Part shown: piece after piece, positions 8,717-51,732 of the stretch
Numbering within the stretch: the first letter of the stretch is position 1
How the letters are laid out: each line of letters opens with the position of its first letter
DNA from: Escherichia coli
Lineage (GTDB): Bacteria > Pseudomonadota > Gammaproteobacteria > Enterobacterales > Enterobacteriaceae
Strand: one strand, 5' to 3'
DNA: 64,000 nucleotides
NCBI RefSeq assembly: GCF_030384885.1
Contig: NZ_CP128613.1
The notes under the pieces: generated by a model
The model's database searches: none
Seen by the model: only the letters and a program-made list of their open reading frames with translations
What the model was told of the DNA's origin: nothing
Position numbers and translations under genes: made by a program

Positions 8717-9319
8717 TTATACCGCCTCAGTCAATTCAGGCTGAGGCGTTTCTACTCCCTCCGCATGAATCAACACCAAACCCGGATGATGCCACAAACT
8801 GGCTGGTGTTACGGTTTTACGCTCCCACGGAATCGAACCTAAAAACCAGAATTTCCAGAAAGTGAGTTTTGCGTTCGGATTGCTATTTAGCAGTTCTCCA
8901 AACGTCTCTATTTCACCCACCGGAATACATAACGCCTCTTTATAAATATCAAAAACGAATTTTGAGCAGAACTGGCGGGAAGATTCGTATTTAAAGCCGG
9001 TGTGGTAGAGCTTATGCAACCGTCCGGGGACCTTTTCGACCAGAGCAAGTTTTTGCTCTGCGGTTAAACCTCCTGCGAGGCGGCGAACACCGTAGCGTTG
9101 ATCGGTCGACCGTTCAATAAATCGTGACAAAGTTGTGATTGTGGAGAGCGGAACTCGACTCTCCGCAACCAGGTAATCATCACCGTCATGTCCGATGATT
9201 ATCCCCACATGGTTGCTCCAGCATTTCGAGGCTGCAGAGATTTGCCCAAACAGGCGAGCACCGATGCAGGTAAAAACAATATCACCGGTTTCATATTTAG
9301 CTGGGTAATTTATTTTCAC
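8717..9319 (-). CDS. yebB: DUF830 family protein
   Basis: 200-aa ORF convergent on ruvC; translation recognised as YebB. Confidence 0.82.
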
Positions 9320-9412
9320 TATATCAATCCATTATTTATATATAAAACAGCATCTATCTTTCGTGATGGTAAAGCATTAGCATTGTATTATAATAATGAC
9401 AAGGAATGTTTT

Positions 9413-10237
9413 ATGCGGTTATTTATTAATGTGATAATTATAGTTTCGATCAGTCAATGCGTGAATGTATTTGCTCAAGATAATGTCATCCGCTATCCCT
9501 GGCGATATGGACGTATTTCTTTAAATGAGAATAATGAGTTTGTGCCTCAAATTATTCATATGCGTGATGATATCTACGGCGTGGGTGAAGCTGGTGCAAG
9601 CCTTAACGATGCGAGAATGGCGCAAAGTGGTGTCGCCGTGAGGCTTAGCGTTATACAGCAGGGGCAGGTGGTGAATGCTTTACTGGATTTCTACAATAGC
9701 AATAATCAACCTGCTTATATCTTTGAAGGTGGTTTGATGCCTTGCAATAAAGCCTTTGACATCACAACAAGCAACATTGTCCTTGATGGGATGTGTGGAA
9801 TTTATGATGGGGTCGATGGCTGGCAAGTTATTCCTGCGGGTGATCATTATAAAGAATCATTTTCACTCACTCAGGCTTTTGAATTTCTGCCGGGAAAACA
9901 TCATTATAAAATTAATGCCGGAAGTTTTATCATCAGAGTCGGGGATGATATTTTTGCAAGAGAGGACGCCGAAAGCATTCTTTTTGATTTGATTAACTGG
10001 CGATATGGCTATGTGCTAAAAAGTTATGAAAGGGTGTCGAAGTGGGATTTAATGGCAGGGACTTATGTACTGCCTGAATACTCGGGGGATAAAAGAATGG
10101 ATGAGTATCGAATTTACTCAAACCAGGTGTCGATTGATCTTAATGGTGACGAGTTAGCACATACGGAGTCCTATCAGTGGCGAATTGATAGCGGAATGAT
10201 CCCGGAAAAATTCAGCGTTCAGGAACTCGCTGAATGA
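9413..10237 (+). CDS. Hypothetical secreted protein (signal peptide), unknown family; not part of the K-12 gene order as I recall it
   Basis: 274-aa ORF from ATG 9413 with AAGGAA RBS 6 nt upstream; N-terminus MRLFINVIIIVSISQCVNVFA/QD looks like a SPase I signal peptide; AT-rich codon usage; track ORF from 9188 overlaps yebB and is not the likely start. Confidence 0.6.
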   Translation: MRLFINVIIIVSISQCVNVFAQDNVIRYPWRYGRISLNENNEFVPQIIHMRDDIYGVGEAGASLNDARMAQSGVAVRLSVIQQGQVVNALLDFYNSNNQPAYIFEGGLMPCNKAFDITTSNIVLDGMCGIYDGVDGWQVIPAGDHYKESFSLTQAFEFLPGKHHYKINAGSFIIRVGDDIFAREDAESILFDLINWRYGYVLKSYERVSKWDLMAGTYVLPEYSGDKRMDEYRIYSNQVSIDLNGDELAHTESYQWRIDSGMIPEKFSVQELAE

Positions 10238-48741: not shown

Positions 48742-49410
48742 TCCTTCCTCAATCTTGAGTAACCCCGTCGTTGAAGGGTTACTCAATTCATCCTGATTAT
48801 ACGCACTGTCATGGTGCAACTGCTTCAATTTAAAACTCTGGTCTGACTTCAAATAATTATCATATTATTTATTTGCGTAACGGGATATCAGAAAAAGATA
48901 TTTAGCCCATTAATTTATTAGGATGTTTACATCGGATTTGTGATTAAGCGTGTTATTATTTATTAGCGAAACGTTTCTCTCTTGATTTTTTTGCGCATTC
49001 ATCAATTTTTCTTATTTTAAATTTACAATACCTTTGGGGATTGACTTCTCTTTGGGGTGATTGATAGCCGTTAACTGACTGTTTTATGAGAAAAAGTGAT
49101 ATAACTTTTTATTCATTGCATAGCAGAAAATGTGATATTGCACGCACTATGTAATAACTTCTCCCATTGGCCTGGAACAACTGAACTTATTGAACTATGT
49201 TAGAAAATACGTCAGTTTAAGTATCTGCCTGAACTGGCAAGGTTAAGCACAATGATATATCGGCGCGTATTCCGTTGCATAAGTGTGCAAAAAAAGTGGA
49301 AGACGTATCGAGATTTGTGCGTCTGATCGAGACATGTTTAAAAATGGCTTGCCATAATTAACGTTGTATGTGATAACAGATTTCGGGTTAAACGAGGTAC
49401 AGTTCTGTTT

Positions 49411-49554
49411 ATGTGTGGCATTTTCAGTAAAGAAGTCCTGAGTAAACACGTTGACGTTGAATACCGCTTCTCTGCCGAGCCTTATATTGGTGCCTCATGC
49501 AGTAATGTGTCAGTTTTATCTATGTTATGCCTGCGGGCGAAGAAAACAATCTAA
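49411..49554 (+). CDS. yobF: Small protein YobF
   Basis: 47-aa [50 protein letters not shown] ending 12 nt before cspC; below the ORF-track size cutoff. Confidence 0.8.
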
Positions 49555-49566
49555 GGAATTTTTCAA

Positions 49567-49776
49567 ATGGCAAAGATTAAAGGTCAGGTTAAGTGGTTCA
49601 ACGAGTCTAAAGGTTTTGGCTTCATTACTCCGGCTGATGGCAGCAAAGACGTGTTCGTACACTTCTCCGCTATCCAGGGTAATGGCTTCAAAACTCTGGC
49701 TGAAGGTCAGAACGTTGAGTTCGAAATTCAGGACGGTCAGAAAGGTCCGGCAGCTGTTAACGTAACAGCTATCTGA
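49567..49776 (+). CDS. cspC: Cold-shock-domain protein CspC
   Basis: 69-aa ORF; RNP motifs KGFGFI and VFVHF. Confidence 0.95.
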
Positions 49777-49823
49777 TCGAATCCACTGATCTGAAGTGTG
49801 AAGACACTTCAATCTCGCTATAA

Positions 49824-49849
49824 AGCCTCGTCGAATGCGAGGCTTTTTA
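49824..49849 (+). terminator. Rho-independent terminator after cspC
   Basis: agcctcg-tcgaat-gcgaggct hairpin followed by T5. Confidence 0.8.
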
Positions 49850-49941
49850 CTTTGTTTTATCTTCGCTCCTGGCGTTCGGATATTTGCCCGCCGCGTGATT
49901 CGCGTTACACTTGCGGCCTTTAGTATCCTGCCGGAGTTGTC

Positions 49942-50751
49942 ATGTCGTTTTCCTGTCCACTTTGCCATCAGCCTCTTTCGCGTGAAAAAAACAGCTATAT
50001 CTGTCCCCAGCGACATCAGTTTGATATGGCGAAAGAAGGGTATGTCAATCTGCTGCCCGTTCAGCATAAACGGTCTCGTGATCCGGGCGACAGCGCGGAA
50101 ATGATGCAAGCACGCCGCGCATTCTTAGATGCCGGACATTATCAGCCGCTGCGTGATGCAATTGTCGCCCAACTGCGGGAACGGCTTGATGAAAAGGCCA
50201 CGGCGGTGCTGGATATTGGCTGTGGTGAAGGGTATTACACACACGCATTTGCCGATGCGCTGCCCGAAATCACCACGTTTGGCCTGGATGTCTCGAAGGT
50301 AGCGATAAAAGCGGCGGCGAAACGCTATCCGCAGGTCACTTTTTGTGTTGCTTCCAGCCACCGTTTGCCGTTTTCCGATACCAGTATGGACGCCATAATA
50401 CGTATTTACGCGCCGTGTAAAGCAGAAGAATTAGCGCGAGTAGTGAAGCCCGGCGGTTGGGTCATTACTGCCACGCCGGGACCGCGACATTTGATGGAGC
50501 TGAAGGGGCTGATTTACAATGAAGTACATCTTCACGCACCTCATGCAGAACAACTGGAAGGTTTTACATTACAGCAGAGTGATGAGTTGTGTTATCCGAT
50601 GCGTCTTCGCGGTGACGAAGCCGTCGCGTTATTGCAGATGACGCCGTTTGCCTGGCGTGCGAAACCAGAAGTCTGGCAAACGCTGGCAGCAAAAGAAGTG
50701 TTCGACTGCCAGACGGACTTTAATATTCACCTCTGGCAGCGTTCTTATTAA
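49942..50751 (+). CDS. rlmA: 23S rRNA m1G745 methyltransferase
   Basis: 269-aa ORF; N-terminal Cys4 zinc motif and SAM motif DIGCGEGYY. Confidence 0.92.
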
Positions 50752-51329: not shown

Positions 51330-51500
51330 GGGGTATCCATAAAACACATCATCGCCCCCAGCAAACATGCATACATGAACAACAAACTGCGATGATTTTC
51401 GCGTTCATGCAGGCATAGCGATTGATGTGCATATGGTCTCGCCTGACTGAAAGTGTTCAGTCCGTACGTGCCACGTTTTGCAACGAGTATGTTGACACGT
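51330..51500 (-). promoter_or_regulatory. mntP 5' leader; expected site of the yybP-ykoY Mn2+ riboswitch (boundaries approximate)
   Basis: Long untranslated leader upstream of mntP; riboswitch assignment is from established knowledge of E. coli mntP, not structurally verified here. Confidence 0.45.
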
Positions 51501-51680
51501 ACATTTCCGGAATCTGGAAATCGGCTACTCCCCAAATGAGGGCGCAACATTAACATATTTTTAGAATATAAAACAACTGTTGGGATATATTATTTCAGCA
51601 GTTAATTGATAACGATTGTCATTTAGATTTATATATCAATGAAACGTTAAAATAAATAACAAATAAGGGAAGGGGTAATA

Positions 51681-51732
51681 TAGCCTAAGCTATGTCTGAT
51701 TATTAAAAATACACTAAACATAGCTTTGGCTA
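51681..51732. promoter_or_regulatory. 15-bp inverted repeat with MntR-box-like arms; alternatively yobD terminator
   Basis: tagcctaagctatgt - 22-nt AT-rich spacer - acatagctttggcta; arms resemble the MntR half-site AACATAGC. Confidence 0.3.

Follow-up and report, generated by a model that had tools for sequence, protein, structure and literature searches.

The 669-bp spacer that separates yebO from the yobF-cspC operon in Escherichia coli (positions 48742-49410 of the 64-kb stretch of contig NZ_CP128613.1 analysed here, hereafter the window) probably represents a composite transcriptional control region for yobF-cspC and not an RNA leader, a reading to which we give a probability of about 0.65. 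It would combine neutral AT-rich filler with four conserved DNA elements held at fixed spacing. A third promoter fires at 49209 and is conserved across the Enterobacteriaceae at a fixed distance from the two promoters proximal to yobF. This fixed-spacing distal promoter, a fixed-position palindrome at an orphan RNA 3′ end and a LacI-type operator-like motif are new and unannotated. As a piece of the genome the region is ordinary but richly structured, being long, AT-rich, flagged for H-NS and served by multiple promoters.

The global RNA chaperone CspC influences RpoS, virulence (PhoP) and the use of succinate, and it is a recurrent target of adaptive mutation. Its transcriptional control is poorly described, and databases give two promoters next to yobF. 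The third promoter and two putative regulator sites, at fixed positions across the Enterobacteriaceae, are leads to the inputs behind the level of CspC, for example growth phase and carbon or ribose status. It would be natural to take the long spacer for a csp-type leader, but that leader is the yobF-coding segment.

The spacer runs from the yebO stop codon (48741) to the yobF ATG (49411). The preliminary description of this DNA had noted about 670 bp of very AT-rich sequence with no convincing open reading frame (ORF) and a yobF gene 12 nt before cspC, and this was borne out. The last position of yobF is 49554 and the first of cspC 49567; the G+C content averages 0.50 over the window but falls to 0.34 in 48791-49312 and to 0.32 in 48800-49100, and 200-bp values of 0.33 or less occur at only four spots in the window, its first percentile. 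None of the ORFs in the spacer is credible, the longest lying wholly within the distal part having 31 aa. The predicted ORFs 49243-49449 (−) and 49451-49765 (+), which had been considered spurious, indeed gave no Pfam match, and conservation of the first is confined to its overlap with the invariant promoter block. Of 5426 complete E. coli genomes, at least 5412 contain the spacer. In K-12 it is also 669 bp long and is collinear with that of the window (11 substitutions, no indels), so that K-12 coordinates x convert exactly as 49411 − (x − 1907591).

A third yobF promoter, conserved at fixed spacing

The promoter features of the spacer are the following (strand in brackets; features listed without a sign, here and below, have no strand assigned).

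49172-49208 (+): distal promoter (island B), CTGGAACAACTGAACTTATTGAACTATGTTAGAAAATA, with the −10 element TATGTT at 49196-49201, a C at −13 and its transcription start site (TSS) at 49209
49313-49410 (+): invariant proximal block; an alignment of 25 genera is nearly invariant from 49313 to the yobF ATG
49329-49358 (+): promoter P-b, with −35 GAGACA at 49329-49334, extended −10 tgcCATAAT at 49350-49358 and a TSS at about 49363
49340-49344 (+): A-tract, invariant and directly upstream of the −35 element
49349-49377 (+): promoter P-a, with −35 TTGCCA at 49349-49354, extended −10 tgtGATAAC at 49369-49377 and a TSS at 49384-49387
49394-49397 (+): leader GAGG, within the proximal block

The distal start was published as a second yobF TSS (1905817 in old coordinates, 49209 here) in M9 glucose, where it drew 107 reads and the main TSS 249 (Kim 2012). 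It gives a leader of 202 nt, and the upstream sequence printed with it, ending in CTGGAACAACTGAACTTATTGAACTATGTTAGAAAATA, is that of the window save for one strain single-nucleotide polymorphism at 49167 (Kim 2012). The start was left unremarked and its promoter is unannotated. Conservation was followed in 80 orthologous loci collected with YebO as probe, and motif counts are given over 78 genomes of Enterobacteriaceae. The distal core TTGAGCTATGGTA was present in 70 of these, and island B stands at a fixed 136-140 bp from the proximal anchor, or 128 bp in the Kosakonia/Phytobacter clade. The stretch between the TSS and the proximal block keeps a length of 95-108 nt though its sequence varies. 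A short ORF beginning at the ATG of island B was not conserved.

The last 100 bp or so of the spacer hold two overlapping extended −10 promoters of the sigma70 type after the A-tract, with leaders of about 25 and 48 nt. The pairs TTGCCA-17-GATAAC, leading to the TSS at 49384-49387, and GAGACA-18-CATAAT, leading to that at about 49363, are both TG-extended, and their hexamers were also picked up by a consensus promoter scan. The former promoter, TTGCCA-17-(tgt)GATAAC, has been published (Shimada 2014). The main E. coli TSS comes from three independent sources (K-12 1907615-18 by tagRNA-seq; 1905641 in old coordinates) and converts to 49384-49387, 24-27 nt before the yobF ATG. The Salmonella TSS lies about 48 nt before that ATG (about 49363), and a reporter construct built from the mapped TSS starts at GTTGTATGTGATAAC. 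A long Salmonella leader, implied by Tn5 coordinates, was rejected, as the reporter primer puts the TSS about 48 nt upstream of the ATG; the transposon insertions described as lying in the 5′ untranslated region (UTR), 172 and 181 nt past the TSS, fall within the yobF ORF.

Several promoters in one long spacer are known elsewhere, the mngB-cydA spacer having five (cited by Shimada 2014). The yobF spacer resembles such tandem-promoter spacers in being long and co-directional, with several holoenzyme peaks in vitro and at least three mapped TSSs for one operon. It differs in that its distal and proximal promoters keep their spacing to within a few base pairs from genus to genus, the transcribed sequence in between varying freely.

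Transcripts of the spacer and the csp-type leader

Downstream of the distal TSS lie two features that bear on its transcript.

49209-49286 (+): transcribed variable segment, either a putative RNA of about 78 nt or the 5′ part of a 202-nt long-leader mRNA
49275-49290: palindrome TTGCATAAGTGTGCAA (family consensus GCATAAnTGTGCA), overlapping a mapped 3′ end at 49286

The 3′ end at 49286 (K-12 1907716) was recorded by Term-seq with 264,852 reads and appears only on the sheet for lysogeny broth (LB) at an optical density (OD) of 2.0, where the yebO end has 46,490 reads and the cspC terminator 3.06 million (Adams 2021). It was classed as 'orphan, upstream of ORF', at −125 from yobF, and the text of that study passes it over without discussion or follow-up (Adams 2021). 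A terminator scan gave neither an intrinsic terminator nor a U-tail at 49286; the end falls inside the palindrome and an A-run follows it. The palindrome consensus GCATAAnTGTGCA was found in 58 of the 78 genomes, its distance to the anchor downstream always being 62-63 bp; it precedes the proximal TSSs by about 82 and 102 bp and is a candidate binding site for a regulator. A 24-aa ORF across this region (49252-49326) was not conserved.

The TSS at 49209 and the end at 49286 may delimit one molecule of about 78 nt. In the composite control region that we propose, the two proximal promoters produce the cspA-like yobF-cspC mRNA, while transcripts from the distal promoter would either read through them into a long-leader mRNA or, in early stationary phase, stop at 49286 to leave the 78-nt RNA. 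The stop would most likely mark an elongating polymerase meeting a polymerase or another protein on the proximal promoter region: with its active site at 49286, the front edge of the enzyme would reach about 49305, the upstream edge of the proximal promoter complex. The distal promoter would act mainly through promoter interference or by supplying one more input, not by way of its RNA, whose sequence is unconstrained, and a promoter spacing kept within a few base pairs while the intervening sequence varies likewise points to a positional role such as interference. The palindrome would bind a regulator upstream of the proximal TSSs, a second conserved element further upstream (module I, below) would supply an input controlled by a repressor, and the AT-rich filler binds H-NS and RNA polymerase holoenzymes in vitro according to the literature.

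The same transcript could be read as the product of a free-standing gene for a trans-acting small RNA (sRNA), with its own conserved promoter, a mapped primary 5′ end at 49209, a 3′ end that is well defined and rather abundant in stationary phase, and a size of about 78 nt that is typical of sRNAs. We consider this unlikely, as the 3′ end is without terminator or U-tail and the body evolves neutrally (Escherichia identity 0.67-0.70), differs completely between genera, cannot be aligned between them and has no conserved seed. Neither is its stability in excess: z was +0.25 for the 78-nt E. coli RNA and −0.91 for a 212-nt RNA, neither of them significant, and folding the segment from 70 genomes gave a mean z of −0.42 with only three genomes below −2. 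No Rfam family matched it. The 49286 end is one of the orphan ends of the Term-seq study that also catalogued 5′-UTR-derived or prematurely terminated short RNAs (Adams 2021), but unlike these RNAs it lies upstream of the main promoters, not in the main 5′ UTR, and has no terminator structure.

The preliminary description had instead proposed a possible long leader, and on this reading the spacer encodes a long, structured 5′ UTR with post-transcriptional control, as in the cspA family. The minority TSS at 49209 with its 202-nt leader agrees with this, as does the use of long leaders in the csp family, and the Rfam model of the cspA thermoregulator (RF01766) does match at this locus.

49391-49851 (+): yobF-cspC mRNA, matching RF01766 end to end, outside the AT-rich spacer

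The reading is nevertheless quite improbable and already largely refuted. Leaders from the major TSSs measure only about 25 and 48 nt, no TSS has been mapped in the upstream 470 bp or so of the spacer, the first 70 nt or so of the 202-nt leader are neutral and completely different between genera, and that leader folds no better than shuffled sequence (z −0.91). The RF01766 match (135.4 bits against a gathering score of 78, with the same match in 15 other genera) begins downstream of the spacer, at 49391; in E. coli and the other 15 genera alike its start is about 20 nt ahead of the yobF ATG. Because the model starts near the proximal TSS and the mapped leaders are short, the csp-type long leader is the yobF-containing segment of 182 nt between the TSS at 49385 and the cspC ATG at 49567, and not the AT-rich spacer. 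The first 80 nt or so of the yobF-cspC mRNA show a modest similarity to the cspA leader (z 2.7). The transcript from the proximal TSS is like the cspA thermoregulator in matching the full model, with the 5′ end of the model at the TSS and 182 nt to the cspC ATG, where leaders of this class have about 160 nt; it is unlike it in that the match lies downstream of the AT-rich spacer and that the 'leader' holds a translated yobF of 47 codons. A thermosensing switch is putative here.

The yobF ORF sits where a cspA-type 5′ leader would be, and the 5′ end of RF01766 coincides with the proximal TSS in 16 genera, which suggests that a small ORF arose within a csp leader or was retained in it. At the far end of the operon, a scan placed the cspC terminator at 49822-49846, and Term-seq placed the cspC 3′ end at 49849 (K-12 1907153; Adams 2021). 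A further Term-seq 3′ end inside yobF, at 49523 (K-12 1907479) and 44 nt before the cspC ATG, was recorded in LB 0.4 and M63; lying between the two cistrons, it could be a site of pausing, attenuation or processing.

The other proposals of the preliminary description, an UP element or nucleoid-protein sites and an unannotated RNA or long leader, held in part. The invariant A-tract stands upstream of the −35 element, and the spacer was flagged for H-NS with 'multiple RpoD peaks within the 670 bp spacer' in vitro (Shimada 2014); for the RNA there are the second TSS (Kim 2012) and the orphan end (Adams 2021). A TSS does lie immediately upstream of yobF, but transcription and conservation of the upstream region both exist.

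Peaks of the RpoS holoenzyme, by genomic systematic evolution of ligands by exponential enrichment (gSELEX) and by chromatin immunoprecipitation, and a peak of RpoN cover 49242-49479. A sigma54 promoter under the RpoN peak was rejected, as the best match to TGGCAC-N5-TTGCA has 9 of 11 positions, is without the GG and is reached by 9% of shuffles. An in-vitro run-off array (ROMA) lists a '-f' signal for the spacer in the same sigma70-preferred table as yebN/mntP, its leader and 'antisense of cspC'. The co-listing with mntP and its leader argues against a local antisense promoter (in the spacer or in 49411-50750, minus strand), and the '-f' and 'antisense of cspC' signals are best explained as one Rho-free in-vitro read-through from the mntP promoter.

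Neutral filler, module I and its operator-like motif

Upstream of the distal promoter the spacer divides as follows.

48791-48936: variable AT-rich stretch 1, identity 0.64-0.75 to other Escherichia lineages against a neutral 0.65-0.66
48937-49025: distal module I
48937-48944: TTTGTGAT motif, within module I
48951-48959: extended −10-like TGtTATTAT, directly upstream of the operator-like palindrome
48965-48980: operator-like palindrome AGCGAAACGTTTCTCT, within module I
about 48996-49025: degenerate copy of the family-wide TGTCAT-N5-TTTCATTATTTTGGTGCA, within module I
49026-49107: variable stretch 2, identity 0.60-0.67 against a neutral 0.65-0.66
49108-49171: segment preceding the distal promoter, semi-conserved, with TTTATGCATTACAAAGCATAAAAAGTGATAT in Citrobacter and Salmonella

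The neutral yardstick was the identity at four-fold degenerate sites of the flanking genes within Escherichia. Measured against these, about 60% of the spacer changes at the neutral rate and the remainder consists of discrete conserved elements. The variable parts have Escherichia identities of 0.60-0.75, and the constrained ones 0.75-0.80 (module I), 0.78-0.95 (island B), 0.89-0.97 (49276-49312, the palindrome region) and 0.94-0.98 (the proximal block). Outside Escherichia, ordinary alignment holds for 49305-49410 only, with 82-95% identity, equal to that of coding sequences. No constraint was detected in stretch 48791-48936, which cannot be aligned beyond Escherichia. The segment 49108-49171 aligns at 73-77% in Citrobacter and Salmonella and is near neutral within Escherichia (0.68-0.71).

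The spacer measures about 600-700 bp in Escherichia, Salmonella, Citrobacter and Klebsiella, and about 1.5 kb in 32 of the 80 loci because a gene for a hydrolase of the metallo-β-lactamase (MBL) fold (331-341 aa, Pfam Lactamase_B_2) follows yebO there, at a position equivalent to about 48742-48940 of the window. The gene was seen in Lelliottia, Kosakonia, Leclercia, Buttiauxella, Cedecea and some Enterobacter (loci L009, 3308-4303, and L031, 3310-4335) and is absent in Escherichia, Salmonella, Citrobacter and Klebsiella. Beyond the proximal 100 bp or so, the spacer might be functionless filler, for instance what was left when the hydrolase was lost, and its islands chance or mutational cold spots. 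The neutral rate over some 60% of its length, the 331-aa gene found at this position in 32 of the 80 loci and missing here, and the distal location of all 11 differences between the window and K-12 would fit. We regard this as rather improbable, as, in genera retaining the hydrolase gene, about 520 bp still separate it from yobF and show the same motifs at unchanged distances, the motifs occur in 58-71 of the 78 genomes at fixed spacing within scrambled flanks, and one island coincides with a mapped TSS. Descent of the spacer from the hydrolase gene was rejected, tblastn against the window having given chance matches only, with no remnant detected.

A horizontal or mobile-element origin with silencing by H-NS is extremely improbable and already largely refuted. 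The G+C content in the first percentile of the window and the H-NS flag (Shimada 2014) would suit it, and the spacer is like other H-NS-bound AT-rich intergenic DNA in its low G+C content and in being flagged, in a gSELEX-based table. Unlike H-NS-bound foreign DNA, it is vertically inherited and has conserved motifs: it is syntenic in the 80 loci, homologous across the Enterobacteriaceae and present in nearly all E. coli, and the low G+C content upstream of the distal promoter is kept in all genera. Neither a donor sequence nor a patchy distribution was seen. The spacer showed no phage similarity and no repeats like those of insertion sequences, repetitive extragenic palindromes or transposons, and its plasmid similarity was only to chromosomal sequence filed as plasmids. 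The four PLSDB 'plasmid' records matching it (H11-H14, 0.4-4.9 Mb) are E. coli chromosomal sequence. Rfam gave no family inside the spacer, either at a permissive E-value in the window or at the gathering score in 15 other genera.

Within the composite control region, module I holds the most conserved distal 10-mer, the core CGAAACGTTT, which 71 of the 78 genomes carry at 320-390 bp before the promoter anchor, genomes with the hydrolase gene among them. The palindrome AGCGAAACGTTTCTCT around it shares 15 of 16 positions with the K-12 rbsD operator of RbsR, AGCGAAACGTTTCGCT, and is identical to it over the left half and the central CG; Citrobacter and Salmonella reach the same score as E. coli, and Enterobacter-type genomes reach 14 of 16. 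Across the 71 genomes the left half and centre do not change and the right flank varies (CTCT, TGCT, TTAT). From its sequence, the palindrome is predicted to be an operator of the LacI-family type, closest to that of RbsR. Cra and PurR consensus sites share the central AAACGTTT. Compared with the RbsR operator of rbsDACBK, a LacI/GalR-family site, the motif is alike in sequence and differs in its place, some 390-445 bp ahead of the yobF promoters and ATG and at no known promoter, with a right half that is degenerate in many genera. The adjoining extended −10-like sequence suggests an upstream input under repressor control. That sequence would set its +1 at the operator and is poorly conserved outside Escherichia, and no TSS corresponding to it is listed for M9 glucose (Kim 2012). 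In most genera the motif is followed by an inverted repeat (TTGCCT...AGGCA) and TGTCAT-N5-TTTCATTATTTTGGTGCA. Most of the inverted repeat does not vary, and at its one variable pair compensatory changes occur alongside mismatches; given this weak covariation there was no case for an RNA hairpin in module I. A conserved small ORF (the 'FIILV' frame) was rejected too, as stops interrupt it in at least eight genera and its start codons vary. The remaining motifs were compared with PhoB, CytR, NtrC, CRP and Fur sites, and none fitted convincingly.

A bolder reading makes module I a ribose- or nucleotide-responsive RbsR-type operator acting on an upstream or the distal promoter, and the distal promoter with its 78-nt stationary-phase stop product a conserved interference switch on cspC. 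We hold it to be doubtful. In a Salmonella screen, rbsR and cspC mutants share a succinate-growth phenotype, and the authors attributed the rbsR effect to RpoS; if the switch existed, it would provide a direct link from RbsR to CspC that could explain the shared phenotype.

Several points weigh against the composite control region as a whole and against its parts. Klebsiella and Raoultella are without the core CGAAACGTTT, the right half of the operator-like motif is degenerate in Kosakonia-type genomes, and the second half of module I is degenerate in E. coli itself. Published RbsR gSELEX gave only about five sites, and the palindrome and module I are putative binding sites. The collision geometry draws on general knowledge of polymerase footprints, and the link from the distal TSS to the 49286 end is a putative one. 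That end was seen in one of three Term-seq conditions and could come from processing of yebO read-through, and the distal TSS itself comes from one dataset (Kim 2012).

A direct repeat, 48863-48882 and 48954-48973, is 90% identical over copies 91 bp apart; it is present in E. coli and not in the other Escherichia lineages aligned. It duplicates TATTATTTATT and GCG(A/T)AACG, the left part of the operator-like region.

Flanking genes and further observations

The genes around the spacer run kdgR - yobH - mgrB - yebO - yobF - cspC - rlmA - mntP, in reversed orientation relative to K-12. Their identities agree with the annotation of an identical E. coli genome and with that of K-12, and Pfam recognised YebO, YobF and CspC among the products (YebO, DUF2527/2627 and CSD). 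At the yebO end of the spacer stands one further feature.

48755-48790 (+): yebO terminator hairpin, a perfect 11-bp inverted repeat with arms at 48755-48765 and 48776-48786

Folding gave this hairpin a free energy of −15.5 kcal/mol and a z of −3.7. The primary 3′ end of yebO (K-12 1908212/3, converting to 48790) lies directly after it (Term-seq, Adams 2021).

The other three of the four most AT-rich spots of the window (200-bp G+C of 0.33 or less) are 9251-9550, 63501-63750 and the mntP-yobD spacer beyond its riboswitch (51501-51800). This is a yybP-ykoY manganese riboswitch upstream of mntP (51445-51541, minus strand), which scores 41.9 bits, just below the Rfam gathering score of 45, with an E-value of 7e-9.

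Between yebO and yobF of one collected genome (L001, NZ_CP027579.1), the locus tags skip from RS03210 to RS03220, the feature RS03215 being gone from the current feature table, and a like gap (RS03240) occurs there between mntP and yobD. Another locus (L011, CACSKA010000003.1), labelled 'Chryseobacterium sp. 18061', carries a typical enterobacterial yebO-yobF-cspC arrangement with 100% identity in CspC, and that assembly is probably mislabelled or contaminated.

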